A stretch of 64,000 nucleotides of DNA, from contig CAZEKH010000003.1 of the NCBI GenBank assembly GCA_964512925.1, positions 80,772-144,771 of the forward strand, in the 5' to 3' direction. Under the pieces are notes generated by a model. The model saw only the letters and a program-made list of their open reading frames with translations. It had not been told where the DNA came from and did no database searches. Positions 11,027 to 43,111 of the stretch are shown piece after piece; the first letter of the stretch is position 1, and each line of letters opens with the position of its first letter. Origin of the DNA: an uncultured Candidatus Saccharibacteria bacterium. Its GTDB lineage: Bacteria > Patescibacteriota > Doudnabacteria > UBA920. The position numbers and the translations under genes were made by a program.

Positions 11027-11263
11027 TGAGCTGTGTAATTTGTTTCTATCAGTGTTCCACCTTGCCAAGCAATGCGTGGCAGGTCTGAGGACAATTATCT
11101 CTTCGCCCACTGAAAGGGGCTTCAAGCATTTTTCAGGCCGTATAAGTCAATTTTTGGCTTTCCAGCAAGTTTCGTATATTTGGCTGTAAAAGTGCCTTTT
11201 TTACCTTACATATACAGTATATATGAAGCCTTAACACTTGTCAACTGGACTTATCCACAAGCA

Positions 11264-11422
11264 TTAACATTTATATAATTCTTTGTTCTCTTGGAATAAT
11301 TGCACACATCTTGGTCTTGAAATTTTGTAAAATTGCGCAAGTTGCCCCCAAGTCCATAACTTAGGATTTTTCAAACGCTTTTTGACCAATTCTTTATTTC
11401 GTTTTTCATTTTTTGGATACAT
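11264..11422 (-). CDS. small HTH protein (candidate excisionase/regulator), 52 aa. Not in the ORF track because it is below the size cutoff.
   Basis: Manual translation gives MYPKNEKRNKELVKKRLKNPKLWTWGQLAQFYKISRPRCVQLFQENKELYKC. The WGQLAQFYKISRPRCVQL stretch is helix-turn-helix-like. It sits between the integrase and attL. Confidence 0.35.
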   Translation of the reverse strand: MYPKNEKRNKELVKKRLKNPKLWTWGQLAQFYKISRPRCVQLFQENKELYKC

Positions 11423-11453
11423 AGAAATATAATAACTCTGTGTTAAGCCTTTG

Positions 11454-12416
11454 TCAAATTTTTTTATTTAAAATTTTATGCCTTATCAAAACCTTAGACA
11501 TTCCATAGGTTAATTCCACCGGATCGGAAAAACCTTTTTTCTCAAATATGCGCCGGTGCTCATCTTGGCTCCGCTCTTTAGTCCAAGCCGTATAGTGCCT
11601 AAGTGTTGTCCTTTCGCTTTCGTGTCTGCATAGGTTTTGTACTGTTTTAATATCAGCCCCGCCCCTCAAAAGTTCCGTTGCAAATGTTGACCTAAAAATA
11701 TGTGGGTGTATTCTTTTGGTTATGCCCGCCCGCCTCATAGCCGTATGTATTGACCGCCGTATATTGCAAGGCTTAGCCCGGCGCCCGGTAAAACTTACAA
11801 AAAGAGGCTCAAAATTATCATTGCGCATTTCCAAATAACGCCTAACCCAGCTTAAACTTTCATCAGTAAAATAGATTTTACCTTCGGAATAAGGCGCTTT
11901 TCCGCTTTTTATTTTAGCCTCTTTTTTATACCAATCAATTGTTGATCTGTCTAAACCCAAAGCCTCCCCTATCCTCATACCAGTACACCGTAAAACCTCA
12001 ACCAGCGCCCGATCCCTAAGCCCTACGATCCAATTAGTATCAAAAGCATTTTGTACTCTTTCCCATTCTTCCGGGTCTAAAAATTCAATCATTTTTTTAG
12101 GCTCTTTAGGTAACCTTATATCCCGCCAATCAAAATCTAGTTTATATCCGGACTGTTTTATATACCATAACAACTGCCGAAAAACTACGCCCGCCCTAAG
12201 TGGTCCATATTTGCCGTGGTTCCGTGCTTCCTCATAGCACAAAGCAACATCGGTCATTTTCAGGTTTTTTATATCCTTTTCGCCTACTCGCGAAAAAGCA
12301 TTTTCAAATTGTTTTTTATAATCATACAAAGTTTTTGGGTTTAAACCGAGCTTTTGCTTATGCTCAATAAGTCCATTAAAAAAATCTTTTAGCTTCATAA
12401 AATGACAAAGACCCAC
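11454..12416 (-). CDS. int: phage integrase, tyrosine recombinase family
   Basis: C-terminal catalytic region contains R...HPHIFRSTFAT...LCRHESERTTLRHY (R-H-R-Y tetrad pattern). The start is more likely the internal ATG (MKLKDFF) near 12398. Confidence 0.9.
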   Translation of the reverse strand: MGLCHFMKLKDFFNGLIEHKQKLGLNPKTLYDYKKQFENAFSRVGEKDIKNLKMTDVALCYEEARNHGKYGPLRAGVVFRQLLWYIKQSGYKLDFDWRDIRLPKEPKKMIEFLDPEEWERVQNAFDTNWIVGLRDRALVEVLRCTGMRIGEALGLDRSTIDWYKKEAKIKSGKAPYSEGKIYFTDESLSWVRRYLEMRNDNFEPLFVSFTGRRAKPCNIRRSIHTAMRRAGITKRIHPHIFRSTFATELLRGGADIKTVQNLCRHESERTTLRHYTAWTKERSQDEHRRIFEKKGFSDPVELTYGMSKVLIRHKILNKKI

Positions 12417-12435
12417 TGACGCGAATCAGTGGGTT
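12411..12435. other. perfect hairpin cccactg-acgcgaat-cagtggg overlapping the integrase start region
   Basis: 7-bp perfect stem followed by ttt. A possible operator or terminator. Seen directly in the sequence. Confidence 0.4.
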
Positions 12436-13819: not shown

Positions 13820-14704
13820 TTAAGCATTTGTAACTGGCAAATTTATTGTTGGTTCATCACCTTTAAATTCAAATGCCTGTTTTAAGTTTTCCAAGGCATT
13901 CATATCTTTTGCAAACCCGCCACCGAAAGTAAAACCCTCGGTCACGAGTACGCCAATTTTGTCGCCTTGTTTTATAAAAAATCTATTGACCATTATATCC
14001 TTCCAGTTTTCAGGCAAATCCCGAAAACTTTTTACCCCGGTTAGTGGATAATCGGGATTTAATTTTTTAAATTCTCGACCGATTGAATCTTGAATATACA
14101 TATAACCCAAAGCATCAATGTAGTACAGAGTTACGGCGTGGTACGCTTCTATTTTGCTTGGAGTTTGAACCATACCCTCTTTTTCCCAATTTCCGTCAAT
14201 GCCGACCGCTATTTGTAGTGGGCTATGATCTAGTGCGTCTACCATTGCCGCCCTGCCATAAACCCAGCTATGATTTCCGCCCTTATACACCTTTTGCCCG
14301 GTATTGTTTGGCAAATCAAAAATTTTCTTCCAAATAACATCGCCCCCATACTTGACCATTTCTTCGGTAAATGGACAGTCTTGTTCTTTTCTAACCCCAA
14401 CCTTTCGGAAAAATTCCGAAACCGGCTCCATGCTGTTACCTGTGATTGTTGTACCAGATATTACACCCAACTCTCTGTCAGAAAAATTTATATCAATTCC
14501 TTGTTTTTTACCTACCGCCTCGGCACAATTTAAGCGCGAAAAAGAAACACAAAACGGAATCCAGTATTGCCTCTCACGAGCGGGTAAAAATTTAATCCAA
14601 TTAAAACTTTCGCGCACTTCCCCGGCCCCGACGTTAAAAATTAGATCATATACCGCTGATCCGGGTTTTATACTTTCTGGTATGTAGCCGTATGGTTTAT
14701 ACAT
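13820..14704 (-). CDS. putative cysteine-peptidase-like protein (candidate endolysin)
   Basis: Candidate Cys in SRLNCAEAVG, and His in a papain-like EAYHAVTLYYIDALGY context. Flanked by two small membrane proteins. The assignment is weak. Confidence 0.3.
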   Translation of the reverse strand: MYKPYGYIPESIKPGSAVYDLIFNVGAGEVRESFNWIKFLPARERQYWIPFCVSFSRLNCAEAVGKKQGIDINFSDRELGVISGTTITGNSMEPVSEFFRKVGVRKEQDCPFTEEMVKYGGDVIWKKIFDLPNNTGQKVYKGGNHSWVYGRAAMVDALDHSPLQIAVGIDGNWEKEGMVQTPSKIEAYHAVTLYYIDALGYMYIQDSIGREFKKLNPDYPLTGVKSFRDLPENWKDIMVNRFFIKQGDKIGVLVTEGFTFGGGFAKDMNALENLKQAFEFKGDEPTINLPVTNA

Positions 14705-14705
14705 A

Positions 14706-15011
14706 TTATTTTAGAATTTTTTTAATCCAAATTTGTAAAATTCCAGTTGTTTCAATGCCTAACCACCCGCCAGTTCCAGCAACTGACAAAGTTAAATACT
14801 CATTAGTCCCAAATAAGCTCACCGCAATAAATCCAGTTATAATTCCAAAAAAAGAGGACATAACACTTAAAGCTATAAAATCTAAAAAACCTTTACTTTC
14901 GCCTGTTCTGTGTTTATTTATTGCGTTTGCTAAGCCGCCTATAAGAGCCACTAATCCGTGCTTATAAGCTATTGTTTCCGAAACAATTTTTGATGATTCT
15001 AAGTCTGGCAT
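14706..15011 (-). CDS. small membrane protein (holin-like candidate)
   Basis: 101 aa, with hydrophobic helices LVALIGGLANAI and FFGIITGFIAVSLFG. Confidence 0.3.
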   Translation of the reverse strand: MPDLESSKIVSETIAYKHGLVALIGGLANAINKHRTGESKGFLDFIALSVMSSFFGIITGFIAVSLFGTNEYLTLSVAGTGGWLGIETTGILQIWIKKILK

Positions 15012-15054: not shown

Positions 15055-15750
15055 TTAAATTTCTGAAATAACCGTAAAATTTACTCCTACTCCGCCGCCG
15101 CCAATTGTCCAAGTTAAAATAACATTGGTAGAATCAACGCTGATCGTTGCTATATTGTAAGTTCCGGTTCCTGCTTGGATATAAATAATATATGTGGTAT
15201 CAGTAGCCGATCCCGATGATCCGCTAGTCTGATAATATGAGGTTGCAGTAGAAGACCCATTGTATACTCCGATAGACATCACCCCAGCCGTTCCTCCATA
15301 CGCATAAATTGTTACTTTTTTGGGTATTGCTCCTAAGTTGTGGGCTATATTTTGAGTTCCACCCGAGCCGGCTGCCCTGCTGGATGTAACAACGGTAGTT
15401 ATTGGCTGGCGGTAACTGTCTAAAATAAAATCTGTCCCATCATAGTAAACCTGAACAATTTGCCCCGCCACAATATCGCCGGTTAGCAAATCATATTTTG
15501 TTGACCCAACATATTTTTTTATAGTTTTAACCCCAAGAGAATTTACATTCAAAGTCGCGGCGCCGGTATTTCCTACATCCGCTTTAAATCTAAAAACATC
15601 CCCGGTTGTTAAACTTCCAGGCGTTGGGGTAATGGTTACAACATAACTATCGTTGCCGGTAGACGATGCCGCATATCCTCCCGCCACTTGGACTATTCCG
15701 TTTAGGTCAGCCGCCGGCAAATTATTTCCTGCGCTATAAATTTTAGGCAT
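15055..15750 (-). CDS. tail fiber-like protein (Gly/Thr/Ser-rich)
   Basis: Low-complexity G/S/T-rich beta-type sequence. It lies at the distal end of the tail module. Confidence 0.4.
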   Translation of the reverse strand: MPKIYSAGNNLPAADLNGIVQVAGGYAASSTGNDSYVVTITPTPGSLTTGDVFRFKADVGNTGAATLNVNSLGVKTIKKYVGSTKYDLLTGDIVAGQIVQVYYDGTDFILDSYRQPITTVVTSSRAAGSGGTQNIAHNLGAIPKKVTIYAYGGTAGVMSIGVYNGSSTATSYYQTSGSSGSATDTTYIIYIQAGTGTYNIATISVDSTNVILTWTIGGGGVGVNFTVISEI

Positions 15751-15759
15751 AAAATTAAA

Positions 15760-16317
15760 TTAGTTAATTGTGTATTGGCACGAAACAAACAAGCTTTGCA
15801 CGCTAGATTTTACCCAGCCGCCGGTTGCGATATAACTAAAAAGTTGACCAGTGTTTGCCCCGGCTGATCCGTCAATAAAATTTCCAAACTCGGTAAAAGT
15901 TCCGCTGGTATCGGTGGAAGCATAGAAAAAGTCTATATAAGCGATGTTAGACGAGTATGTTGCGCTACTATTGAGTTTTCTGTATGTTTCCGTTCCCAAC
16001 TGTGTCGCGCCATTGACTATTGACGGGCTGGCCTGCGTTCCCAGCGCACCATAGTTTATTGCACCAGTATAGGTAGTATTTCCAGCCAGCCGGCGGGCTA
16101 AAACATTGCGTCCGGCGGTAACTACAATGTTATGTTTTTCCCAAACTTCGCCCAGCAAAACACCCTTTTCCCGCAAATACTTATAAATCAATTTGTCATT
16201 ATTTCGGATCGCCTGCCTAAGTAGATCCAAATACTTTGACCCCTCTTTAACCCACCCGGCTAAAGTGAATTTTCGGATGTTAACTTTAACCCCTAAATCA
16301 GATTTAACATTTTTCAT
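15760..16317 (-). CDS. phage tail-associated hypothetical protein
   Basis: ORF in the tail module. No motif found. Confidence 0.3.
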   Translation of the reverse strand: MKNVKSDLGVKVNIRKFTLAGWVKEGSKYLDLLRQAIRNNDKLIYKYLREKGVLLGEVWEKHNIVVTAGRNVLARRLAGNTTYTGAINYGALGTQASPSIVNGATQLGTETYRKLNSSATYSSNIAYIDFFYASTDTSGTFTEFGNFIDGSAGANTGQLFSYIATGGWVKSSVQSLFVSCQYTIN

Positions 16318-16324
16318 ATTGTTA

Positions 16325-17827
16325 TTAAGTTAATTTAAAATTTCTGTCTAAAAATCCCTCTCTTTTAGTGTCTAAAATACTGCTCGGAAAATATGGGGCC
16401 AAAACCCAGCTCGGTTCTACCCCCGCGCCCAAGGGATCTTTTTGGATGTTCTCTGTAATTGTTATGGTTATATTATCTGTTACTGCCGTGCCAACTGTAA
16501 TACTTTCAGTTATAGTTATGGTTGCGATGTCGGTTTTTATAGTTTCCGTGGTTTCCGAATCTGCGGACTTTAAATCTGTTGGCTGTAAAATACTTTGTAA
16601 TAACTCCGTTAAATCATATTTTTTTGTGGTAACCAATTGTACGCTATAAACATAGGTATCGGGTTTTAAAGGTTTAAACTTTACCGCACGAATTATAAAG
16701 TCTGTGTTTGTAGTTCGCCTGCTGCTGTTTAAATTTATAACCATCCCTGCCCTGAGTCCTGATGTATAAGTATCAAAGTTAGCTTCGGTTTGCTGGTCTT
16801 TATAGGCGGATAATTCCCCAACCGCTCTTTTTCTGGCAGTGGCTAAATCTTCAATGCTTGAATCCTCAATTAGTTTTTCTTTAACCCCATAAGTTGCAAT
16901 AGAAGCCGGATCGCTGGCAACCGCTAAAACTCTAACTTTTGGATTTCCGCTAAACTTTATTTTGTTGCCGTCAGCAAGCGCCGAGGCAAATTTAATGGTC
17001 TGATCATTGTAGTTATATAAAACATCGTGTGTAGTAAAATCATTTATGAAGTCAACACCAACGGTTTTTGAAACATAACCGGCGCCAGTATCCAGCTGAA
17101 CGGTTAAGTTTGAAAATTTATAAGGCAGTTTAAAAGTTGCCTGGGTGTTTCCATTGACCGTAATAATGTCTTGGTAAGAACTGGCTTCATATTCTCCGCC
17201 CCTAACCTTAACTTGGTTTGCAATTTGTGAACCGTCAATTTTTCTTTCTAGAGAATTAATAATATAATTTCCGCTCGTATCGGTTAAATTAAATGGTGCG
17301 GTATTGGTATACTTGCTAAAAAAATGGAGGTCTTTGTCCGGGTCTACATACCAGTCAAACTTAACCATGTCCGCAAGTCTTTTTAAACACTGGCTAATTG
17401 CAACTTGGTTAAAAACCACTTTACCTATCACAATTGGGCAATCAACATTTGTACCCGTAAAACCCGTAGCGAAGTTTGTTAGAATGTCGGCAATAATAGC
17501 ATTAACGGTCATGCCGGAATAACTTTGAGAAACTAACAAAGAATCTAAGTCGAAAGAATAATCTGCGCAATCAACTGTGTATACAATTCCATCTGCTCCA
17601 TTTAAAAACTTTTCGGAAATTCTTACAATTCTTCCGCCAAAAATTTTACTAGAACCGTCATATACCAAAACAGTATCTAGTACAGCCGGCACATAACTTC
17701 TTGATCCATATTTTCTATAACTAAATTTAGAAGTGTCGCGTTGCGCACCTAAAATTTGTTGGACTTCTAAACTGCCCTTGTCGAGCAGACTAGTTCTGTC
17801 AGTTCCATTAATAACAACTTGGATCAT
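16325..17827 (-). CDS. phage tail protein (Dit/Tal-like, immediately after the tape measure gene)
   Basis: 500-aa protein directly downstream of the tape measure gene. Assigned by position. Confidence 0.4.
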   Translation of the reverse strand: MIQVVINGTDRTSLLDKGSLEVQQILGAQRDTSKFSYRKYGSRSYVPAVLDTVLVYDGSSKIFGGRIVRISEKFLNGADGIVYTVDCADYSFDLDSLLVSQSYSGMTVNAIIADILTNFATGFTGTNVDCPIVIGKVVFNQVAISQCLKRLADMVKFDWYVDPDKDLHFFSKYTNTAPFNLTDTSGNYIINSLERKIDGSQIANQVKVRGGEYEASSYQDIITVNGNTQATFKLPYKFSNLTVQLDTGAGYVSKTVGVDFINDFTTHDVLYNYNDQTIKFASALADGNKIKFSGNPKVRVLAVASDPASIATYGVKEKLIEDSSIEDLATARKRAVGELSAYKDQQTEANFDTYTSGLRAGMVINLNSSRRTTNTDFIIRAVKFKPLKPDTYVYSVQLVTTKKYDLTELLQSILQPTDLKSADSETTETIKTDIATITITESITVGTAVTDNITITITENIQKDPLGAGVEPSWVLAPYFPSSILDTKREGFLDRNFKLT

Positions 17828-17830
17828 AAA

Positions 17831-19276
17831 TTAAAAGCTATATTTGCCGTTTAAACTTAACTTTGACATTATTGCCTCTTCAACTTTTTGCACTAACTCG
17901 TTACCGGAAATATCGCCGTAAACATTTACCACGACACTACTACCCGCATTATTTCCACCCAAAGACCCTGGGTTTTTTGTGGCTATTATAAAATCATCTG
18001 GGTGTGTAGTTATTATTTGTCCATTCTGAATAACTCCGTCATTAACACCCAAGAAATTTTTTGCCGAACTAAAACCACTTCCAATCGCCCCACCTACAGC
18101 ATTTATACCTCCCTTTAATTTATCGAGCGCATTAAATAATGGTTGTAATTTTTCATTAATCCAATCAATCGCTTTTTTAAATATATCCTTTATTCCTTCC
18201 CAAACATCAAAAAAGTATTGTTTTATTGCATTCCATTTTTCAGTAATTATTATTCTAATACCATCAAAAGTTTGATAAAAAAAGTCTTTTATTTTTGTCC
18301 AAATTTGAACGGCCTTTTGGGATATAATATCCCAGTTCATATACAACGCCACACCTATAGCAATCAAAGCTGTAATGGCAAGTATTACAAGACCAATGGG
18401 GCTAAGAAGTAATCCAATAGCTGCAATTAATCCGGGTAAAATTATTAAAAGTGGACCAACGACAACCAAAAAACCACCGAGAGCAGCTGCAACAATTATT
18501 ATTTGTTCGGTTAACTTTGGATTTTTGTCCATCCAGTCTGATAATCTATCTAACAGTGGTAATAGATGATTATTGACCAGTTTGGTCAAATGGGGATTTA
18601 ATACATTACCAATTTTTTCTCCCAAATCTCCCAATGTTTCATTTAAGATTTTGAGTTGCCCAGTTGGTGTTTTTCCGACTGCTTCAGCCAACCCGCCAAA
18701 CTGACCTTTTAAAGCCTCAATTGCCATAGCCGATCTTTCACTTTGGCTCATGTGTTTTAAAGTTTCGTCGCTAACTAATTTTAAATCCGGGACCAACCTT
18801 TTTAGTGCATCAACCTCACCTAAATATGCCAAAGACAAAACCCTTGTCGCAGCCTCGGCGTTCATTTTTCCACTAGTTTCTATATCTAATGCCAGACTAG
18901 CTAATTCTGTGGCTTTTGTAACATCCTTAACTGTTGGCAACATTAAACCCACAATTTTAGAAGAATACTCATCGGAAATACCCGTTAGTCTTTGAGTTTT
19001 GCTAGAAAATTCTTCAATTGATCTTTTAGTTTTATCAAAATCCAAACCGCTCAGTCTAATTTGTTGTCCTACTTTAGCCCATGCTTCATCGCTGTCTGCG
19101 GCGGCTTTCATTGAAAAACCTAAAGCAGCTACAATTCCACCACCAACTATCGTCGCAGCTTTACCAACCTGATTAAATTGGTCTTCCATTGACTTAATAC
19201 TTGATCCAATTTTTGATATGCTTCCTGTAGCGTTATCAATAGCATTTATTACAATTTGTAATACCGTATTAGACAT
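17831..19276 (-). CDS. tail tape measure protein
   Basis: N-terminal TMP-type region (QIVINAIDNATGSISKIG...), a long internal hydrophobic segment (LGGFLVVVGPLLIILPGLIAAIGLLLSPIGLVILAITALIAIGVALY), and a Gly-rich C-terminus. Confidence 0.55.
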   Translation of the reverse strand: MSNTVLQIVINAIDNATGSISKIGSSIKSMEDQFNQVGKAATIVGGGIVAALGFSMKAAADSDEAWAKVGQQIRLSGLDFDKTKRSIEEFSSKTQRLTGISDEYSSKIVGLMLPTVKDVTKATELASLALDIETSGKMNAEAATRVLSLAYLGEVDALKRLVPDLKLVSDETLKHMSQSERSAMAIEALKGQFGGLAEAVGKTPTGQLKILNETLGDLGEKIGNVLNPHLTKLVNNHLLPLLDRLSDWMDKNPKLTEQIIIVAAALGGFLVVVGPLLIILPGLIAAIGLLLSPIGLVILAITALIAIGVALYMNWDIISQKAVQIWTKIKDFFYQTFDGIRIIITEKWNAIKQYFFDVWEGIKDIFKKAIDWINEKLQPLFNALDKLKGGINAVGGAIGSGFSSAKNFLGVNDGVIQNGQIITTHPDDFIIATKNPGSLGGNNAGSSVVVNVYGDISGNELVQKVEEAIMSKLSLNGKYSF

Positions 19277-19423
19277 ATTTTTTATTTGCCTTTTTTAATT
19301 CGTCAGCCTGATTTTTAAGCCTGTTAGCTATAGCCACAATAAAGTCCCAGCGTTGATCTAAATACTCCTGTTCAGTCCAGCCCATCTCCAAACAAATTGC
19401 AACTTTAAAGTCTTCTATTAGGT

Positions 19424-19756
19424 CTACAGGCTCTTGTCTAAAAAACTTTTTGTTAAATCTAATTCGGAAAAAATGCTATTAATATCAGCTATGTCTATTT
19501 TTCCGACATTCTCAAGACTAACGGGTAAAACATTTCCAGCTTCGTCTTGCAAATTCCATTCCTTAATAATTTTAGTTAGCATTAAAAGTAATTTAGGCTT
19601 GCCGGTTGTTTCACTAAATACATCTATATCGGCGGCTAAAAGACCGTTATAAACTTGTATTACTCCCCCTTCAATACTCTTAAGCTTAATTTCTATTATT
19701 TTTCGTGTGTCTTTTAAAATTGGCATTTTGTTATTTTTTCCCTTACCACTTGACAT
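19424..19756 (-). CDS. hypothetical protein (tail assembly chaperone position)
   Basis: Small acidic ORF between the major tail and tape measure genes. Confidence 0.3.
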   Translation of the reverse strand: MSSGKGKNNKMPILKDTRKIIEIKLKSIEGGVIQVYNGLLAADIDVFSETTGKPKLLLMLTKIIKEWNLQDEAGNVLPVSLENVGKIDIADINSIFSELDLTKSFLDKSL

Positions 19757-34664: not shown

Positions 34665-34895
34665 ATTTTTTAGTTTTGCTATTTTAAATGTTTAATTTTA
34701 ATTGGCAGCACAATATAAAATCTTTTTTTAGCAATGTAAAAATTCCACTGGTGAAGTATAATCTCCCAATGATTAAAAAAATCATATTCCCAAAAAATAC
34801 CTTTGTAGTTTGACTTTGTTAATTGTGTGCCTTCCTCTGGGAAAGATAGTAATTTAAAGCAAGCCAATTGTATATAAGGAAAAAACCCTTTTTTC

Positions 34896-34955
34896 CAAGG
34901 AACATTTTTAGAGATTATAAATCTAAAAGGAACATTTTTAGAGATTATAAATCTA
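34896..34955. repeat. 2 x 30-bp perfect tandem direct repeat (ggaacatttttagagattataaatcta)
   Basis: Copies at 34896-34925 and 34926-34955 are identical except for the first base. The ORF-track protein 34679..34999 that spans it (FRFIISKNVP x2) is doubtful. Confidence 0.8.
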
Positions 34956-35019
34956 AATTGCCACTGATTTAATTTTCTTTCTATTTTTCCAATTTGCATT
35001 TGATTTTACTAGCCGCGAA

Positions 35020-35052
35020 AAATCTAGAGTTTCTCGCGGCTATCGACCTTAA
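35020..35052. other. near-perfect 11-bp hairpin tagccgcgaaaa/ttctcgcggcta
   Basis: Directly downstream of the 35056..35520 gene and 65 nt from the tandem repeat. Confidence 0.5.
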
Positions 35053-35055
35053 TTG

Positions 35056-35520
35056 TTAAACCAACTTTTTGACTAATTCTATACGCTCCATATTAAAGTC
35101 AAAATTCTTAAAACTTAATTCAGCTTGCATTAGTCTGTTTTTTATATCGTCAGGAAAAATTTTGGTTTCATTCTCCAACGCCTCTAATTCCTTACTTAAA
35201 GTTTTAACCTCTTCCCTGATTTCTTTTTTGTGATAATCAGGATTTTGACCGGCAGACAAAGCTTCAATTTCCTTATTTTTAACTTCAATCAGTGTTGGTA
35301 ATTCCTCAAGCCTTTTTTTAGCCCTTTTTACACTTTCCAGATGATCCAGACCTTCGATTAAAAATTTAAACGCCTGTTGACCATAAAAATTTAAAAATTC
35401 ACCTCTGACTTTGTCTTTTTGTTCAGAGCCGTTTATAACCTTTAAACACTCCGAGTATTTAGTTTCTACAGTTTCGAGCGTTAATTCTTTATTTTCCATA
35501 TTTATTTCCCTTTCGCACAC
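35056..35520 (-). CDS. hypothetical coiled-coil protein
   Basis: Charged coiled-coil ORF. Confidence 0.3.
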   Translation of the reverse strand: MCEREINMENKELTLETVETKYSECLKVINGSEQKDKVRGEFLNFYGQQAFKFLIEGLDHLESVKRAKKRLEELPTLIEVKNKEIEALSAGQNPDYHKKEIREEVKTLSKELEALENETKIFPDDIKNRLMQAELSFKNFDFNMERIELVKKLV

Positions 35521-35770
35521 TCTTTACAGAGTGGCTTATTTTTAATTTTAGATTTAAAATGTTGCTTGCATTTTATACAAACACATTTATTTTTTTTGTT
35601 ACTACTCATCTTTTTCTGTCATTTTAAAAAATTGATTTAGTGTTATAGACACAAAAGTAGCACCTAAAAGCCAATACGGGGGTGTCCATACATGGGAAAA
35701 AAACAAAACCGTAAAAGTAAAATATAAACAGAAAAATATAAATTCTAACAGCTTAATCCAATCCATAGTT

Positions 35771-36145
35771 TTAATTTTCTTTAATTGTTATTAGAACCTC
35801 GACCTTTGGTTTGCCATCAATGGCAATTTGGCTTTTAAATGATCCGTCTAAATTGTTGTCATTAACAAACAGTGCGTCAGCAATACCCTTAAAAATGTTG
35901 TCCGGATCTGCGTGTTTTCCGTTTTTCCAATAAATATCCAAATGCATTTCAGCTTTTATTTTGCTAGTAAAAATTACTGGGCTTAACCTAGTTTGCCTTT
36001 TAAATTCAGCCCTTACATATTCTTTCCAGTTGTAATACCTCCTAGCCGCCGGCAACCACAAAGCGCGTCCTACAACCCGAACATACGGGATAGGACTTCC
36101 GTCCTGTTTTTCTTGGTTTCCATAAATTGTAAATTTTATTTGCAT
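35771..36145 (-). CDS. rusA: RusA-family Holliday junction resolvase
   Basis: DPDNIFKGIADAL (D-x-D-N...K...DAL), the catalytic signature of RusA. 124 aa. Confidence 0.7.
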   Translation of the reverse strand: MQIKFTIYGNQEKQDGSPIPYVRVVGRALWLPAARRYYNWKEYVRAEFKRQTRLSPVIFTSKIKAEMHLDIYWKNGKHADPDNIFKGIADALFVNDNNLDGSFKSQIAIDGKPKVEVLITIKEN

Positions 36146-36439
36146 TTATTTTTTTAATAAAGTTTTTTTGTAGAAAAATGGTAAAATTCTCCGTCTTTTG
36201 ATACAAAATATCTAATTTTTGTTTTTTTATTAGCATTTTCTTCAAAAGAAGCCCACGCACTTAACATACTTATTAAAGAATCTAGCGCACATTCCCTTCT
36301 AAATTTAGATCCAAATTCTGCTGTTATAGTTATGTTTATTAACATTTTTTATGTTTTAATTTTCTCAAAACAAACCCTCAAAAATTCCCCCAAGAACCAA
36401 CCAAAAGCAAAACCTATAAAGTATTTTTCCATATTTTTT

Positions 36440-36691
36440 TTATTGATAATATCCTAATTCTTTTGCTTTAGCTGCTATCTTTAAAAATGCTTTTCCGACA
36501 TTTTCAATTGCACTGACTTTCCGCCCGCGCCCTTGTTTATATTCTTTCCCAAAAACTAACTTTGTGTCGCCCTCCTTGCTTTCAATTATCACCCTCCCGT
36601 TCGGTTTTATTTCAAAATGTAAATTAACCATATTTTTTTCTTCCGGGGCCAGCCCAGTTTCCCAATCAACTAAAACATATCCGCGTGTCAT
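36440..36691 (-). CDS. hypothetical protein
   Basis: 83-aa ORF in the operon. Confidence 0.25.
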   Translation of the reverse strand: MTRGYVLVDWETGLAPEEKNMVNLHFEIKPNGRVIIESKEGDTKLVFGKEYKQGRGRKVSAIENVGKAFLKIAAKAKELGYYQ

Positions 36692-37371
36692 TTTAGATAA
36701 TGGTTAATTGTAAATTTTAAATCTTCGCTTAAATTATCTTGATATTTTAGCCATATTAAATAATCTTTCGGAATATCCTTAAATTCTTTTCCTTGGTGTT
36801 TTCCAAAACCAATGAGACGTAACAACACTGGCTTTTCTGTCCACTCGAGCATTTTTTCAATTATTTGCGCCTGGCTTAATTCCGGATTTTCCCGAACCAT
36901 AAAATGCACCAAATAATTAAATAGCGCCTCCAAAACTTCAATATCCCCCTCCGCATCGTGCGCCCGTACTTGTGTAACATCAAGGCCAAAGTTATACCGT
37001 AAAAATTGCAATTTATACATTGAAAGGTCAAATAAATTTTGTACAACTTTCAAAGTATCAATCATCTTTCCAACTTTTAAACCCTCCCTGCTTAAAATTT
37101 CCGCATCAAAAGCCGCATTGTGGGCAACCATTATCACCTGATTTAAATCTGCCTGTAATTTATTTCTAATATCGCTTCCAATAAATGACTCCTTGTTTTC
37201 CACCATTTCATTTGTGATATGGTGGACGCTCATAGCCTCAAAACTAATTGGCACTGGCGGTTTAAAAAGCAAGTTAGCTTTAATCTGCCCGCATTTGTAG
37301 GCCAGTTGCACCAACCGGGCATTTTCATCTTTTCCAGTAGTTTCTGTATCGAGAAATAATAAATTATTCAT
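36688..37371 (-). CDS. DnaQ-like (DEDDh) 3'-5' exonuclease
   Basis: Exo I FLDTETTG and Exo II VAHNAAFDAEIL motifs. Confidence 0.8.
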   Translation of the reverse strand: MNNLLFLDTETTGKDENARLVQLAYKCGQIKANLLFKPPVPISFEAMSVHHITNEMVENKESFIGSDIRNKLQADLNQVIMVAHNAAFDAEILSREGLKVGKMIDTLKVVQNLFDLSMYKLQFLRYNFGLDVTQVRAHDAEGDIEVLEALFNYLVHFMVRENPELSQAQIIEKMLEWTEKPVLLRLIGFGKHQGKEFKDIPKDYLIWLKYQDNLSEDLKFTINHYLK

Positions 37372-37528
37372 TTTGAAATAATGTTAATTGATTCGGATCT
37401 ACTACATTACCCTTACACTTTTTGCAAACTCTTACCTTAGCTTTTTTCCGTTTAAAGCTATGCCGATTTTGTTTTCCGCATTGTTCACACGTGTAATAGT
37501 AAAGCCTGCGCTCTTTAAAAATTCTCAT
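37364..37528 (-). CDS. small Zn-ribbon protein (54 aa), untracked
   Basis: Manual translation gives MRIFKERRLYYYTCEQCGKQNRHSFKRKKAKVRVCKKCKGNVVDPNQLTLFQNE (CxxC...CxxC). Confidence 0.3.
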   Translation of the reverse strand: MRIFKERRLYYYTCEQCGKQNRHSFKRKKAKVRVCKKCKGNVVDPNQLTLFQNE

Positions 37529-37904
37529 GTATTGAATAATTATATTTTGTTTTTATTTCCCCATTTTCTTTTACAGCGGTTTTTGAAATTTTAACTTTTT
37601 GGTTATTTTCAAAAACAAACTCACACTTACTCAAGTCAATCCCGGCGCCGGCTAAATACTCGATATAAACTAAAAACCAGTTTTTACCCGCACCCTCAAT
37701 ATCCTGTCCGCTTGAGTCCGTAACAAACGACTGCCCGGTGTTATAAATTAAAACCTTTATGCTTTTATCCCCTTTTAACTCCGTAACAGTTTTATTTTTG
37801 CCAAAGATTTTAGACAGCATGTTTTTGAGTTTCATTTTAATGTTGTACATTAATTTTTCGTGGTTTAGTAAATTTATATGGGTTTTTGTTTGATTGCTGT
37901 TCAC
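37515..37904 (-). CDS. hypothetical protein
   Basis: 129-aa ORF. Confidence 0.25.
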   Translation of the reverse strand: MNSNQTKTHINLLNHEKLMYNIKMKLKNMLSKIFGKNKTVTELKGDKSIKVLIYNTGQSFVTDSSGQDIEGAGKNWFLVYIEYLAGAGIDLSKCEFVFENNQKVKISKTAVKENGEIKTKYNYSIHENF

Positions 37905-38253
37905 TTTTTGTTGCCCATTTACAATTTTTTATTTCGTAATTACCATTGTTATTTATTCTATCTATTGATGTATTTTTTTCACCAAATTCTAAACAATGTT
38001 TTAAATAAGCTTTAAGCATGTCGTCTCTGAAATTTTCAAATTTAATCCACCGTTCGCAAATTTTTATACCTCGTCCACCATATTTAGAGTAGTGAGAATC
38101 AAAAGTATTTAAACAACGCCTTTTCATTCCGTCCCAAATTCTATAAAATCTAGTTTTTTTCATTCCATGAGTTTTGCTTTGTTTAATTAACTTATTATTT
38201 CTATAACATCCACAACTAATCACTTTTCCTGCTCTTAAATCACCGGTACGCAT
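37837..38253 (-). CDS. AP2-like DNA-binding domain protein (phage homing-endonuclease-associated type)
   Basis: RFYRIWDGMKRRC...YSKYGGRGIKICERW pattern characteristic of bacterial/phage AP2-type domains. Confidence 0.4.
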   Translation of the reverse strand: MRTGDLRAGKVISCGCYRNNKLIKQSKTHGMKKTRFYRIWDGMKRRCLNTFDSHYSKYGGRGIKICERWIKFENFRDDMLKAYLKHCLEFGEKNTSIDRINNNGNYEIKNCKWATKSEQQSNKNPYKFTKPRKINVQH

Positions 38254-38372
38254 GGTTGTTTTATTTCCACATTCACAAACACATTCCCATAAATACTGAT
38301 AAAATTTATCTTTTCCAATACATTTTATTACCAGTAATTTATTAACTTTTTTGCCTGTTAAATTTATTCTAT

Positions 38373-38900
38373 TTATATTGATACTATTTCCTTCCTAAGA
38401 ACAAAATTAAAACTCAATGTTTGTTGTCCTTGCCGTTCTAGCGGATCAATTAAGTCAATAATGTTTTTTTCTGCACCATCCCAATAAGGCATTTCCGAGT
38501 CATTTAATAATTCCTTAAAAGTTATTTGGTTTTCTTCCGGCTTCCAGTACTGCTCATTATGTTTAGTAATTTTTGACCTTATAAGGTATCGGGGTATAGA
38601 CTCGCCGCGCAGAAATTTACCGGCTTTTTTTGTTAAACAGTAATAACCTTTTTTATTAACAGAGGCAATTAGGCCATGAAATTTATTCCTAGATAAGTTT
38701 GTTAGCTTCCATTTTTCGCCGTCTTTCCAATTAAGCTCTCGCGCCGGATGAATTTCATTAACACCTTTGGCACTTACTGCTTTTAAAATCTGCATAAGAG
38801 TTTCGGCACAACCTTTATCTAACCCAATTAAATAACTGGCCGTCTGGTGACAGTGGGGGCAAACTTCTTCTTTGTATTTTTCGACCTTTATTTTTGACAT
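38373..38900 (-). CDS. hypothetical protein (Cys-containing N-terminus; possible regulator)
   Basis: 175-aa ORF. CPHCHQ motif. Confidence 0.3.
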   Translation of the reverse strand: MSKIKVEKYKEEVCPHCHQTASYLIGLDKGCAETLMQILKAVSAKGVNEIHPARELNWKDGEKWKLTNLSRNKFHGLIASVNKKGYYCLTKKAGKFLRGESIPRYLIRSKITKHNEQYWKPEENQITFKELLNDSEMPYWDGAEKNIIDLIDPLERQGQQTLSFNFVLRKEIVSI

Positions 38901-38962
38901 TTATTTTAACTTACTTAGTCTTACCCCCATTAAAACTTAGGGGTAAAGAAAGAAAACTATTA

Positions 38963-39040
38963 ACTCCAACTCCTACTCCAACTCCAACTCCAACTCCTAC
39001 TCCAACTCCTACTCCTACTCCTACTCCAACTCCCACTCCT
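38963..39040. repeat. hexanucleotide microsatellite (A/T/C)ACTCC x 13
   Basis: aactcc/tactcc units counted directly. Intergenic between two minus-strand phage genes. Confidence 0.9.
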
Positions 39041-39083
39041 TACGCCAAAATAATTTTTTTGTGAAAATAAATTCATATAAATT

Positions 39084-39578
39084 CTATTTTTGTTTTTTAG
39101 GTAGCTTATAATTCCAAGGGCTAAAATCAGTTATGCTTTCAATTGCAATACCTGTTCCATTAGGTAGTGGCTCTATTTCGCTAGCACTTAATTCTTCAAG
39201 TTTTCCATCTTTCACAGCGTCTGAATATCTGCCGGTATCAAACACACAAGAAATATCCTTCATTATAAGAAATTTACCGAATAATCCCTCAACAGTTCCT
39301 ACAAAAAAATATCCAACTGTTCTGATAAAATAACTTTCCCCAACTTCAAAAGGTGTTTCGGTCAAATTATTTTCATCTTCCAAAACTAACTTTAACAATT
39401 TTGTTACTAATTTTTCGTTCATATTTTTTGCGTTTTGAAGTACGCTACTTATTTTAATTTTAGTAAAGAAACTTTTTATAATTTCCGTTATTGTACGCAA
39501 CCCATGGCGACCAGCCCTGAGCTTTAAATATCTCATAAGCAAAATCAACATTTTTTTGACAGTCCACCAGATCCACAA
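39084..39578 (-). CDS. hypothetical protein. The true start is probably near 39422 (MNEKLV...), because the 5' end overlaps the transglycosylase gene.
   Basis: ORF-track call. The overlap with the upstream gene in another frame suggests a later start. Confidence 0.3.
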   Translation of the reverse strand: MWIWWTVKKMLILLMRYLKLRAGRHGLRTITEIIKSFFTKIKISSVLQNAKNMNEKLVTKLLKLVLEDENNLTETPFEVGESYFIRTVGYFFVGTVEGLFGKFLIMKDISCVFDTGRYSDAVKDGKLEELSASEIEPLPNGTGIAIESITDFSPWNYKLPKKQK

Positions 39579-40047
39579 GCTTCCAGCCCTTTTTCATGTG
39601 TACAGAATTTATTTGGAAAACTCCTAGATCAATCGTGCCGTTGGTGTTAATTCCAAACCTATCGCATTGCATTGTTCCATTTTCTGCCCGGCTTACGGCC
39701 AGCGCCATTTTACAGTCGGGCCCAAACTTGTCGCATATGTATTGCTGTATTTCATTTAGGGGGCTATTAGCTTTAATTTCTTGAATTATTGTTTTTGATT
39801 CTGGTTTTTCCCGCTTGGTAATATATACCGGGGCATAAAACCCAATCCTTACTGGGTTTTGGAAAACCAATTTATTGTTTTCAAAAAACTGGTTAATTTT
39901 ATAAATCCCATAAAATCCAAGTCCTACAAGTACAACTAAACCAACTAAAACCAAATAATTTTTTGCGCGGGTTTTGGTTTTAGTTTTGCTTTCAATTTTC
40001 CGTTGAATGAAATCAGGTATTTTCGCGATGTTTTTGTTTTCTTGCAT
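39460..40047 (-). CDS. membrane-anchored lytic transglycosylase (SLT-like) domain protein
   Basis: N-terminal TM, then ALAVSRAENG...DLGVFQINS resembling the SLT family 1 E-S/N...GLMQI motif. Confidence 0.5.
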   Translation of the reverse strand: MQENKNIAKIPDFIQRKIESKTKTKTRAKNYLVLVGLVVLVGLGFYGIYKINQFFENNKLVFQNPVRIGFYAPVYITKREKPESKTIIQEIKANSPLNEIQQYICDKFGPDCKMALAVSRAENGTMQCDRFGINTNGTIDLGVFQINSVHMKKGWKLVDLVDCQKNVDFAYEIFKAQGWSPWVAYNNGNYKKFLY

Positions 40048-40070
40048 ATTTTTGTTTTTATTTTTTTAAT

Positions 40071-40487
40071 TTAAACTGGTAACATTTCGGCTTCCCTTGC
40101 CACTTCCCAGGCGTATTTAATTATTTCGCCTTTGTTATTTTTTATATGGTTATATTTAACTTCCTTTTTTTCAGGTTTAAAAAATTTTTCCAAATCCTCC
40201 AGCTTTGCGGTTGGTTTTCTTTTTTTGAAACCCTTTAACATTAATTCTTTTGCGTTTTTAGTTGACCGGCTAAAAACATTTCCAGACAACATTTTTTGAT
40301 TAGTTTCATACGGCTGGTGATAGTCATACGATTTTTCGCAAATTTCCTTGATACTTGGAAAAGCAATATAATTTGACCCTAGCCATATTCCATTTTGTTT
40401 GCCTTCCGTACTTGCCAGCATTATTTTTTCGACTTGCTCGTCAGTTATGTCATAAACCTTATTTTCATAGGTAATTATTTGTTTCAT
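40071..40487 (-). CDS. hypothetical protein
   Basis: 138-aa ORF. Confidence 0.3.
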   Translation of the reverse strand: MKQIITYENKVYDITDEQVEKIMLASTEGKQNGIWLGSNYIAFPSIKEICEKSYDYHQPYETNQKMLSGNVFSRSTKNAKELMLKGFKKRKPTAKLEDLEKFFKPEKKEVKYNHIKNNKGEIIKYAWEVAREAEMLPV

Positions 40488-41188
40488 ATTCTTACGGCGT
40501 TAGTTTGTTTTTTTTCCTGAAAGCCTCCGGCCCTTGAAAGCCAAGTTTCAAACCTCCTGCTGACCTCAAAAGTTTTTTCCGTTTCCCAGCGTTGCCTACT
40601 TCCGGATTTATTGGGTTCGGTCCAATAGCGAGTAAATTTTCTTATTTCTTCCGCTATGGCCTGTATATTAACATCGTACTTTTGCGAAAACATAACCCCA
40701 ACTTTCCTCCGCGTGTCTTCATCCTCAAAAAACTTTTTAGCAATTTCCTTGGGCGTGGGCGGCGAAAAGCCGCCACTCTCTAGACTAACCTTATCTAACC
40801 TAACCTTACCTATACTGCGTGACGGTTCCGTCGACGAGCCGTCGACGGCATCGGTGTATGATCCGTTTTCTTTGATTGTTAAGGTATTTTTTTCTTGAAA
40901 ATACTTTGTCGGCTCGTATGTGTCTTTCCGGATGTAGTTATGTATCAGCCAATGCTTAATTACACAGATTCCGGACTCAAAAGGCAATATAAATCTTTTA
41001 GCACAAAGTATTTTAAAATCATCGTCAGTAGATCCCAAAAGCCTCATTATTTTTTTGGGTGAAGATACAAAACCGTCATCGTCGGCTTCCATATTCAGGT
41101 GAAAATATAACAGCTGGGTACTGGCCGGCATATCGAGAAATGCGTCGGTGCTAATTACCAGCCTTGAGAACATTCTCTTTTGTGCCAT
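40484..41188 (-). CDS. putative phage replication/replisome-organizer protein
   Basis: Assigned by position next to recT, and by a winged-helix-like N-terminus. Weak. Confidence 0.3.
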   Translation of the reverse strand: MAQKRMFSRLVISTDAFLDMPASTQLLYFHLNMEADDDGFVSSPKKIMRLLGSTDDDFKILCAKRFILPFESGICVIKHWLIHNYIRKDTYEPTKYFQEKNTLTIKENGSYTDAVDGSSTEPSRSIGKVRLDKVSLESGGFSPPTPKEIAKKFFEDEDTRRKVGVMFSQKYDVNIQAIAEEIRKFTRYWTEPNKSGSRQRWETEKTFEVSRRFETWLSRAGGFQEKKQTNAVRI

Positions 41189-42065
41189 TTTTATTTTTAG
41201 TTAATTCTTCTAACTTTTTCAGATAAATTGGCTTGATTATTTGCCAATCATAATCAGATATCTTTTTCTCTTTTTTAGCCTCGTTTATTCCAGAGCCTAA
41301 AAATGACAATTCTTCTTTGGTAAAACAAACCTCAATTTCGCCCTTTATTTTTTCTCCCAAAACTGTCATTTTCTGCTCTACTGGTTTTTGCTCAACTTTT
41401 TGAGTAATCTCTGCCGGCGCTGTTACTGTCTTTGTAACTTCCGCTGCCTCAACAAAACCTTTATCCGCTTGTTGCATTTCCTCGTGGGTATATAACCCGC
41501 TTAAATCGTTTGGAAAAGCTTTGCGTAAAGCCAATGCCTCGGCACATTTTCCAAGCATTAAATGTGGCATTTTATTCCACATAAATCCTTGTTTTTCCCC
41601 GGGATAGTATTGCTCCCAGCGTGCGGTTGCCGTAAATGGGCATCTAACTCCTTGAACAATTTTATAAACTGTAACCGTTGCTTTTTTTGGCATCTTTTCG
41701 TTGTCAAAAGTTGGATCGTCATTCCCGGCATATGATCCTGTCCTTTCGGCAATTGTCCTAAAACCGTCAATCCCAACTTGGTGCGTTCCAACTTCGTCAT
41801 AGCCGTTTGTTTGTTTATTCCAAACTTTTCGCTTAACAAAATGAATTTGTTTAGTAAAAGGATCTAATCCGGTTTTGTTCGCAACAACCATAAACAATTT
41901 AAGCTCATCATTTGTTGCTCCTTTTGCTACGGTGTTTTTTATTAATTCAATCTGTTCTTGGTTGTATGGTTTGACAGCCTGTGAAGATTGAAGTATAATT
42001 TGCTTAGAGTTTTTACTTTCAGACGCCGTTTCCGCGGTGTCTTTTTTATTATTTTGATCGGTCAT
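41151..42065 (-). CDS. recT: RecT-family single-strand annealing recombinase
   Basis: GLDPFTKQIHFV...GIDGFRTIAERTG...LGKCAEALALRKAFP matches conserved RecT blocks. Confidence 0.8.
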   Translation of the reverse strand: MTDQNNKKDTAETASESKNSKQIILQSSQAVKPYNQEQIELIKNTVAKGATNDELKLFMVVANKTGLDPFTKQIHFVKRKVWNKQTNGYDEVGTHQVGIDGFRTIAERTGSYAGNDDPTFDNEKMPKKATVTVYKIVQGVRCPFTATARWEQYYPGEKQGFMWNKMPHLMLGKCAEALALRKAFPNDLSGLYTHEEMQQADKGFVEAAEVTKTVTAPAEITQKVEQKPVEQKMTVLGEKIKGEIEVCFTKEELSFLGSGINEAKKEKKISDYDWQIIKPIYLKKLEELTKNKNGTKENVLKAGN

Positions 42066-42385
42066 TATTTTAAAATCTTAAAAATAAATTGGCTGGTTAC
42101 ATCCTGCTTGCATACAGAGCTTTTATACTCCGCTACACAAGTTACATAGCTTAGAGCCCAAAGCGCTAACCAAAATACGCTAAAGCCTATCAAACCCGCA
42201 AGGGTTTTTTTAATTATTTGCATACCGTTCGACCTTTCGCCCGCCGGTAAATACTGCGGGAAACTACTGTTATATTTATTTACCCTTATGTACTTAGTCA
42301 TATTTTTGTCCCTTTCCTTTTTTAATTTTTGTTTTTCCCTCCGGTTAAGCGGGGGTCTCGAGCCTTTAAACCCGCCTAACCGCAA
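42065..42385 (-). CDS. small basic membrane protein, hypothetical (first gene inside attR)
   Basis: One clear TM segment LAGLIGFSVFWLALWALSYV. It overlaps the GC-rich structured region. Confidence 0.3.
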   Translation of the reverse strand: MRLGGFKGSRPPLNRREKQKLKKERDKNMTKYIRVNKYNSSFPQYLPAGERSNGMQIIKKTLAGLIGFSVFWLALWALSYVTCVAEYKSSVCKQDVTSQFIFKILK

Positions 42386-42541
42386 GGGGTTAGCTTTTTA
42401 ACTTGCACCCCGTCCGCGGGAAACAAAGACTCCGCGGGGGTCCCGGACTAGTCGGTTTCAGGGCGCAAATAAAAAAGCTAACCATTGCTGGTTAGCTTTA
42501 AAATTGTACCTATTGCCTAATTTTGCCCAAAAGCGGGGTTA

Positions 42542-43111
42542 TTACCGCTTCGCCCACTGTGGGGATCTACGGGCACGTTTTAAACCTGGTTTCTTTCTTT
42601 CTTTTTTACGGTCATCGCGGGTTAATAGTCCGTTCTTTTTTAACACTTTTCTGACTTCTTCGGAAAGTTTAGACAAAGCTATGGAAATACCGTGCCTTAA
42701 AGCCTGCGCCTGGGAGTGAAGTCCCCCGCCGTTGACTGTGGCAGTGAAATAAAAATTTGGCCTCTGTCCGGTAACATCAAAAGGCTTTAAAGCCACATCC
42801 ACAAACTGAGCAAAAGAAAAATATTTTTCCAAAGGCTTTTTGTTAACCAAGCTGTCGCCTTTTCCGGAAAACATCCGGACATTGGCTACAGAAGTTTTTC
42901 TTCTGCCGGTTGCGAATATGTATCGTCCGTCTTCAATCGGGGCAATATCAAAAATTTCCATCTTAGGCGCTGCAGCTTGAGACTGCGCGGGTAAAATTTC
43001 AGCTGCTGGATGAGAAGCTGGATGGTGCGTTGCTGTTTTTTTTGCCTTGGCGGCTTTAGGCTTGGCTGAGTGGGCCGCTGGCTTTTTGGCTGCTGGTTTT
43101 TCGTTTACCAT
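42542..43111 (-). CDS. rpsI: 30S ribosomal protein S9 with Ala/Lys/Pro-rich N-terminal extension. The 3' end is reconstituted by the prophage.
   Basis: C-terminus ...GGGLHSQAQALRHGISIALS...KKPGLKRARRSPQWAKR. Confidence 0.9.
   Translation of the reverse strand: MVNEKPAAKKPAAHSAKPKAAKAKKTATHHPASHPAAEILPAQSQAAAPKMEIFDIAPIEDGRYIFATGRRKTSVANVRMFSGKGDSLVNKKPLEKYFSFAQFVDVALKPFDVTGQRPNFYFTATVNGGGLHSQAQALRHGISIALSKLSEEVRKVLKKNGLLTRDDRKKERKKPGLKRARRSPQWAKR

Follow-up and report, generated by a model that had tools for sequence, protein, structure and literature searches.

The 64,000-nt stretch of DNA analyzed here (the window; all plain coordinates are positions in it) raises the question of how a prophage could enter the last codons of rpsI, the gene for ribosomal protein S9, and leave the protein unchanged. 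Our answer, held with high confidence, is that a temperate tailed phage integrated by Campbell-type recombination into those codons and that the gene end was restored in the process. The host is a bacterium of the Patescibacteria, or candidate phyla radiation (CPR), and probably belongs to Candidatus Doudnabacteria; its S9 is 60 to 74% identical to the S9 proteins of Candidatus Doudnabacteria and other Patescibacteria metagenome-assembled genomes (MAGs). The two attachment (att) junctions and the host genes at the right-hand one are listed here.

11095 to 11112, minus strand: attL, the host's own copy of the final five S9 codons and stop, now displaced, with a 12-bp identity core at 11101 to 11112
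42542 to 42559, minus strand: attR, made up of the 12-bp core (42548 to 42559) and the phage-derived CGG TAA that completes rpsI; read from the sequence, with the junction repeated in Logan contigs L001 and L002
42542 to 43111, minus strand: host rpsI, 189 amino acids (PF00380, E = 2.4e-39)
43105 to 43524, minus strand: host rplM, immediately upstream of rpsI (PF00572, E = 3.6e-35)

The 12-mer CTTCGCCCACTG occurs exactly twice in the window, at 11101 to 11112 and 42548 to 42559, in direct orientation, as a preliminary description of this DNA had claimed, and had no match in 100 shuffled sequences. On the minus strand, the left copy (11095 to 11112) reads CAGTGGGCGAAGAGATAA, or CAG TGG GCG AAG AGA TAA, and the right copy (42542 to 42559) reads CAGTGGGCGAAGCGGTAA, or CAG TGG GCG AAG CGG TAA; both encode QWAKR-stop. 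The repeat can be extended imperfectly to 17 of 19 positions (ATTAyCkCTTCGCCCACTG), taking in the stop codon and one more base, and was recorded as repeat family D9 with a spacing of 31,447 bp, which is the length of the element when one core copy is counted. The right copy is the real end of the 189-aa S9 open reading frame (ORF), whose Pfam Ribosomal_S9 match runs to the last profile position (121 of 121), and the left copy is a displaced gene end. The frame of rpsI is completed by phage-side DNA that supplies a synonymous arginine codon, CGG in place of AGA. The earlier reading of both copies, of the differing arginine codons, and of an intact rpsI re-created by the phage was thus borne out. 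The attL junction reads ...CCCCTTTCAGTGGGCGAAGAGATAATTGTCC and the attR junction ...GATCCCCACAGTGGGCGAAGCGGTAATAACCCC; the attB (GATCCCCACAGTGGGCGAAGAGATAATTGTCC) and attP (GAAGCCCCTTTCAGTGGGCGAAGCGGTAATAACCCC) strings predicted in the preliminary description are correctly derived from them. At its other end, S9 carries a Lys/Ala-rich N-terminal extension of about 60 residues (MVNEKPAAKKPAAHSAKPKAAKAKK..., 42932 to 43111, minus strand) that is partly common to many Doudnabacteria relatives.

Direct repeats of 12 nt are common in themselves, the window holding 1,100 exact 12-mer pairs, and a core of only 12 bp is short. It might therefore be argued that the two 12-mers match by chance and that the phage lies in the spacer between rpsI and the SIMPL gene with other, unrecognized ends. 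This is very improbable. With the comparison confined to the 450 nt that follow int and the 100 nt at the rpsI stop, the expected number of matches is about 0.003, the G+C-rich word itself is expected about 0.002 times per strand, and both copies are in frame as QWAKR-stop. In addition, the motif recurs at a like distance from int in at least eight members of the integrase family described below and is absent from 1.5 Mb of control sequence. The significance of the pair thus comes from its position and from comparative evidence rather than from length alone. A tRNA or transfer-messenger RNA (tmRNA) gene was also considered as the target, but ARAGORN detected no such gene anywhere in the window, which rules out a target of that kind.

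The left end of the element carries the integrase gene and the phage arm of attP.

11454 to 12416, minus strand: tyrosine integrase, a 320-aa ORF (314 aa in the NCBI call; PF00589, E = 2.1e-32)
11113 to 11453, minus strand: phage arm of attP, 341 nt from int to core
11264 to 11422, minus strand: 52-aa helix-turn-helix (HTH)-like ORF between int and core

The PF00589 match scores 112.7 bits against a cut-off of 27.1 and covers residues 112 to 281. The protein is identical to P0001 of the family P0001 to P0042, and in the family alignment A1 (39 members) R142, K167, R236, H259, and Y269 do not vary and H233 is retained in at least 90%, the catalytic R-K-H-R-H/W-Y columns having been assigned by pattern, not structure. 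The window integrase would be the enzyme that recombines attP with attB. It lies 341 nt from the left core copy, a spacing like the 242 to 346 nt seen in family members, and just 5' of the core the phage arm reads GAAGCCCC-TTT, which is similar to the AGAAGCCCA found in rpsI of other Doudnabacteria. Small ORFs homologous to the 52-aa ORF follow int in L090, L087, and L255 (alignment A3; L-numbers are fetched loci), and the L090 homolog has a weak HTH_23 match on record; the ORF is a candidate recombination directionality factor or regulator. Among 50,697 phage records, no integrase is more than about 28% identical to this one. The nearest, labeled as from "Listeria phage," proved to be unverified wastewater contigs lacking the S9-tail motif and were set aside as uninformative on shared specificity.

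In the mechanism that we propose, the tyrosine integrase would recombine two sites, the phage attP (CAGTGGGCGAAG-CGG-TAA), which lies 341 nt beyond the end of int, and the host attB (CAGTGGGCGAAG-AGA-TAA). Strand exchange would take place within the 12-bp identity, where the crossover and overlap region presumably lie. The host would supply everything up to the crossover and the phage would supply CGG TAA and a terminator, leaving the rpsI protein (..SPQWAKR) unchanged. The original tail and terminator would be left at attL beside int and SIMPL, and the phage early genes would come to lie just downstream of rpsI, behind the phage-supplied terminator. The prophage may still be able to excise. 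In the ribosome, the C-terminal tail of S9 extends to the P site, and its last residue, an arginine, is described as universally conserved, which accounts for the constraint on this sequence. Indeed, all 65 of the 65 Doudnabacteria-like relatives encode PQWAKR-stop, with synonymous differences only; 18 of them have the exact 12-mer, and 40 have it with at most one mismatch. Because the S9 tail is nearly invariant, the end of rpsI is a good target, and one integrase clade can therefore use many hosts.

The host sequences beside the two junctions were compared with the same region in these relatives.

10114 to 10887, minus strand: host SIMPL gene (DUF541; PF04402, E = 3.6e-53), the ancestral downstream neighbor of rpsI
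10995 to 11027, minus strand: stranded original terminator hairpin of the rpsI operon, a 13-bp stem, A/U-flanked and bidirectional in shape (RNAfold, -23.9 kcal/mol)
42474 to 42499, minus strand: phage-supplied intrinsic terminator, 43 nt past the rebuilt rpsI stop, an 11-bp stem followed by a T-run (-15.7 kcal/mol)

A SIMPL gene was found on the downstream side of rpsI in 27 relatives; about 10 of these have it as the next gene, 110 to 300 nt past the rpsI stop codon and preceded by a hairpin terminator. Similar hairpins occur right after the rpsI stop in L015, L019, L026, L029, L030, L032, and L073. A simple terminator scanner made no call for the hairpin at about 10995 to 11027 because its T-run is absorbed into the stem. 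When the element is removed so that one core copy remains, the order becomes rpsI, AGA TAA, the -23.9 kcal/mol hairpin, and SIMPL, which is the arrangement of the relatives; the empty rpsI-SIMPL junction of the source species is accordingly predicted to read ...TCCCCACAGTGGGCGAAGAGATAATTGTCC... The preliminary description had held that the old 3' end and old terminator were stranded beside SIMPL, and it was right in that the hairpin is real and SIMPL is the ancestral neighbor of rpsI in relatives.

Several other features stand near the junctions. A G+C-rich, strongly structured stretch of 156 nt (42320 to 42475, minus strand) separates the phage-supplied terminator from the first phage ORF; it has a minimum free energy of -60.6 kcal/mol (minus-strand z = -2.8, plus-strand z = -0.7) and includes the repeats GACCCCCGC and AAGCTAACC. 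This stretch matched no Rfam family and is not conserved in L008, and a known RNA near attR was discarded as a candidate, the Rfam search having yielded a sub-threshold chance match only. A promoter-like site at 11244 to 11216 is directed across the core; it was given no weight because the total of the scan was no higher than in shuffled sequence. On the host side, between SIMPL and the next host gene, the bacterial class A RNase P RNA occupies 9683 to 10064 on the plus strand (100.3 bits against a gathering threshold of 100).

A junction of this kind could in principle be produced by assembly, with a free phage contig joined to a host contig at the shared S9 tail. The source is a MAG, and attP and attB share 12 to 19 bp. 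However, the shared stretch is below the assembly k-mer size, and two symmetric misjoins would be needed. The junctions are also repeated in independent Logan assemblies of four SRA runs, attR in L001 and L002 and attL in L004 and L005. We regard a chimera as the least probable of the alternatives, behind even a chance match of the 12-mers.

Further comparative evidence comes from the relatives of the integrase. The family comprises about 40 proteins that share 35 to 67% identity (E < 1e-50), with a clear gap from XerC/D-like proteins. Genomic context was taken for every member with a fetchable long contig, and each member with enough flank had either an S9-tail mimic 240 to 355 nt after int or an element end abutting rpsI. 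The principal loci are as follows, with identity to the window integrase (Int).

L086 and L087, Int 56% identical: Int, 346 nt, QWAKR-stop, a defense island, a second tail copy, SIMPL
L252 and L253, Int 65%: Int, 316 nt, tail, a Tsp45I/methylase cassette, SIMPL
L088 and L089, Int 51%, and L092, Int 59%: rpsI, an inovirus-like element (Zot, REP_ORF2-G2P), Int, restriction/defense genes
L090, L091, and L093, Int 52%, and L254, Int 44%: phage genes on both sides of Int and tail, with gaps of 327 and 242 nt, respectively
L255, Int 47%: QWQKR-stop 319 nt after Int
L094, Int 36%: QWSKR-stop about 355 nt past the end of the Int match

The tail motif thus lies 242 to 346 nt after int in L086/087, L090/091/093, L252/253, L254, and L255, in L094 and L172, where the Int match is partial, about 355 to 400 nt past its end, and in L088 and L092 at the element ends. 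The members counted above as sharing this spacing are independent of one another and include free phage genomes. QWQKR and QWSKR are S9 tail variants present in other Patescibacteria. A search of IMG/VR with the single integrase sequence returned nothing, and profile scans of IMG/VR and metagenomes returned only a few true family members and mostly remote XerC/D-like integrases. The 1.54 Mb of unrelated-integrase loci that came as a by-product of those scans served as the control, and the strict nucleotide motif was found there in none except two close family members, L093 and L172.

Two members of this family bear directly on the proposed mechanism. The first 144 bp of IMG/VR contig 3300005683_000006 recur at its end, and an independent ENA assembly runs across the joined ends, which shows the contig to be a circular phage genome of 37,236 bp. 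In this genome (L090/L093/L256/L257), int is followed by ...GSKRAPRSPQWAKR-stop, an attP with about 45 nt of the rpsI 3' end. A free-element attP with a gene-end mimic beside int was thus found in family members (the circular genome and phage contig L254), and not for the window phage itself. Furthermore, L253 (phage, int, tail) and L010 (rpsI, tail) show 100% identity for more than 200 nt beginning at CCACAGTGGGCG and no relationship on the upstream side of it, and the breakpoint is within 2 bases of the 5' (rpsI-proximal) edge of the window core. From this alignment, L253 and L010 appear to be a natural pair of attL and phage-free site. At the other junction, L008 has a 46%-identical homolog of the first phage ORF directly after rpsI and appears to be a fossil of a related right end.

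These observations suggest that the end of rpsI is an integration hot spot at the level of the phylum and that a single integrase clade serves it. With moderate confidence, we go further and propose that the rpsI 3' tail is a dedicated landing pad of a CPR-specific clade of at least about 40 integrases, that it is shared by unrelated elements which accrete in tandem between rpsI and SIMPL, and that the attP tail variant tracks the S9 tail of the host. The element types at the tail would then be tailed phages, inovirus-like Zot/Rep elements, and restriction-modification/defense islands.

Individual loci are also of interest in their own right. L086:10001-20465, from the same MAG as L043, has two tandem elements at the rpsI site, with tail copies separating them at 11292 and 20226. 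A phage with Int at its end comes first, then a 9-kb island, and then SIMPL. The island of L086/L087 is of the restriction-modification/defense type, with RadC, two D12 methylases, RE_AlwI, and AAA_13. The inovirus-like elements at the Patescibacteria rpsI tail (L088:4240-15017 and L092:38-9000) encode an integrase of the same family as that of the tailed prophage, together with REP_ORF2-G2P, a rolling-circle initiator. The L088 element is closed by a second tail copy, and its cargo from Int to that distal tail consists of a C5 methylase/RE_NgoFVII, GmrSD, and HEPN.

In the relatives, the rpsI-SIMPL interval is highly variable, from 110 nt to more than 5 kb. Occupied intervals contain restriction-modification cassettes and Schlafen/AlbA_2, NYN, and IS200-like genes, so that the interval marks a variable defense locus in very small genomes. 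The small cassettes of L010:6510-8959, L038:534-2903, L035, L014, and L036 are of the types Tsp45I with N6/N4 methylase, Eco47II with C5 methylase, Schlafen/AlbA_2-HATPase, NYN, and IS200-like transposase. Several relatives have extra copies of the rpsI tail. In L069:6343-6679 (and in L049, L067, L070, and L048), the last ~35 nt of rpsI and ~110 nt downstream are tandemly repeated, the L069 repeat having a 146-bp unit in 2.3 copies that are 96% identical, and in other Patescibacteria loci a second tail copy lies 80 to 160 nt past the rpsI stop. Such copies may represent traces of successive integration and excision events, or else small elements of a non-autonomous kind. In several species, what comes after the rpsI stop or an att copy is a different short unit, GACCAyCCTGAGC..GTCGAA..TGGGCnAAnCGTTAA, in which the duplicated part of the gene is limited to its final ~14 nt (L007:6420-6465, L012:6510-6554, L034, L046, L020, and L088:15018-15060).

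The interval between the repeats was next read for phage functions. Every sizable ORF between 11454 and 42385 is encoded by the minus strand.

13820 to 15011, minus strand: lysis region, a holin (by match) and an adjoining 294-aa ORF (by position)
14706 to 15011, minus strand: LydA-type holin (PF16083, E = 2.7e-09)
15055 to 17827, minus strand: tail proteins (PHROG tail matches)
17831 to 19276, minus strand: tape measure (PHROG tape-measure matches)
20379 to 21368, minus strand: tail tube (PF18906, E = 6.7e-21)
21996 to 22406, minus strand: Neck1, within the tail/neck module (15055 to 23054)
22407 to 23054, minus strand: head-tail connector, same module
23501 to 24637, minus strand: HK97-type major capsid protein (PF05065, E = 2e-49)
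24650 to 25813, minus strand: prohead protease (PF04586)
29321 to 31450, minus strand: portal fused to a Mu-F-like head-morphogenesis domain in a single 709-aa ORF (PF04860, E = 1.5e-48; PF04233)
31884 to 33239, minus strand: large terminase, TerL (PF03237)
33650 to 34204 and 37837 to 38253, minus strand: two HNH nucleases, within the early module (33650 to 42385)
34161 to 34664, minus strand: ParB-like protein, early module
35771 to 36145, minus strand: RusA-like protein (weak match), early module
36688 to 37371, minus strand: RNase T-type exonuclease, early module
40484 to 41188, minus strand: DnaD-like loader, early module
41151 to 42065, minus strand: RecT, early module
42065 to 42385, minus strand: first phage ORF, the one with the L008 homolog

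The element is an apparently complete tailed prophage. The set of terminase, portal, maturation protease, HK97-type capsid, tail tube, tape measure, and lysis gene is present, the head and packaging module spans 23501 to 33239 (minus strand), and the tail/neck module has a further Pfam match, to PF05135 (E = 2.7e-09). As judged from these matches, the phage would have an HK97-fold capsid and a siphovirus-like tail. The claim that the interval is a prophage therefore stands, with functions identified from the integrase through TerL and in an early region that includes RecT, the DnaD-like protein, and the exonuclease. The 294-aa ORF beside the holin had no family match in Pfam and PHROG profile searches and is, from its position only, a possible endolysin. 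The portal is 22 to 24% identical to the nearest among the 50,697 phage records, none from a cultured phage being close, and the GC content and skew of the prophage are indistinguishable from those of the host. Two repeats stand within it: a 6/12-nt-period array, (AACTCC/TACTCC)n, at 38950 to 39040 between ORFs 38373 to 38900 and 39084 to 39578, which on the minus strand would read (Gly-Val)n, and a perfect 30-bp tandem duplication at 34897 to 34956 within ORF 34679 to 34999.

Along with the shortness of the core and the frequency of 12-nt repeats given above, several results count against integration as we describe it. Exact-protein look-ups with S9, SIMPL, the first phage ORF, and Int returned filled junctions or nothing, and no empty site. 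The exact attP string of the window phage is absent from IMG/VR, and the exact string of core and host flank is absent from Joint Genome Institute (JGI) metagenomes. No repressor or canonical excisionase (Xis) was recognized among the prophage ORFs. The flanking DNA could not be aligned at the nucleotide level because the closest sequenced relatives have only 60 to 74% S9 identity. The check for an empty site that the preliminary description had proposed was answered in part: synteny in relatives and one related phage/host pair agree with its expectation, and no empty site or attP junction of the source species was obtained.

The same results could be explained if the prophage did integrate at the rpsI tail and is now fixed, cryptic, or domesticated and no longer excises. 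All contigs with an identical S9 or SIMPL protein are filled, no attP junction appeared in IMG/VR or in the contig look-ups, and a repressor and Xis were not recognized, all of which fit such a state. On the other hand, the large ORFs are uninterrupted, all modules are present, and the catalytic residues of Int and both cores are intact. The missing excision products carry little weight because the contigs in question are only five short ones from one sample series. We consider a fixed prophage unlikely, if well ahead of a chance match or a chimera, and retain integration of a temperate phage with restoration of the gene end as the preferred reading.

Phage 21 and e14 integrate in the 3' end of icd in Escherichia coli, where the element replaces the gene's 3' end (Campbell's review of chromosomal insertion sites). 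As in the window, attB lies inside a protein gene, and the substitute 3' end has synonymous or conservative differences that leave the gene functional. Unlike those elements, whose substitute is about 165 bp, the window phage clearly retains 18 nt and a degenerate upstream trace, and the free phage L090 retains about 45 nt. Lambdoid, P4-like, and many other temperate phages integrate into the 3' ends of tRNA and tmRNA genes. They share with the window phage a short conserved target, a gene end restored by attP, and an int beside attP, whereas the target here is a protein-coding tail constrained by amino acids rather than by RNA structure. As a consequence of this protein-level constraint, attP variants differ at synonymous or tail-variant positions (QWAKR, QWQKR, QWSKR).

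The preliminary description had also called a ribosomal-protein ORF uncommon as attB, and this was overstated. In Firmicutes, integrative and conjugative elements (ICEs), integrative and mobilizable elements (IMEs), prophages, and resistance islands are all documented at the 3' end of rpsI, which is a hot spot for them (PMC4701971, PMC7487436, PMC5341023). The ribosomal protein genes rplL, rpmG, rplS, rpsD, and rpsR are used likewise. Among streptococcal ICEs, rpsI is one of 18 target genes (PMC4701971). In group B Streptococcus, the prophage integrase type GBSInt5 uses rpsI as a hot spot shared with ICEs and with elements like phage-inducible chromosomal islands (PICIs) (PMC7487436). The Macrococcus mecD islands (McRImecD) have a 61-bp att consensus that takes in the stop codon of rpsI, with the displaced gene end at the distant repeat (PMC5341023). 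The window element resembles these Firmicute elements (ICESt3-type ICEs/IMEs, GBSInt5, McRImecD) in its rpsI 3' end, tyrosine integrase, direct repeats that include the stop codon, and displaced 3' end at the far junction, and likewise in tandem accretion at a hot spot common to phages, islands, and other elements. It differs in its CPR host and in a QWAKR-stop core with 12 bp of identity. On the Firmicute side, the tail is QFSKR-stop (in one Clostridia genome among the fetched loci), and Macrococcus has the 61-bp consensus and extended direct repeats of about 160 bp. The att core differs from those of the Firmicute systems because the S9 tail differs. Compared by target gene and published descriptions, the window element appears to work as the Firmicute rpsI systems do, and we do not class its integrase among theirs. 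Prophages in Patescibacteria have been reported in the literature in general terms, and none of the papers searched describes rpsI as an attachment site in bacteria other than Firmicutes.

The mechanism is thus classical, the rpsI target is established in Firmicutes, and no concept is changed. New here are the rpsI target in the CPR group, a probable CPR-wide hot spot, and an apparently dedicated integrase clade. The prophage is cleanly delimited in an uncultivated CPR bacterium, with both att sites defined to the base, and the locus appears to be a hot spot for recurrent integration and defense islands in very small genomes. A phage contig with int and an S9-tail mimic would become assignable to hosts with that S9 tail, which would give a sequence-based link between virus and host in Patescibacteria. 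If the rpsI tail is indeed the dedicated landing pad of this integrase clade, the attP tail variant could assign uncultivated phages to Patescibacteria hosts, and the Int/att pair could serve as a site-specific integration tool for genetically intractable Patescibacteria.

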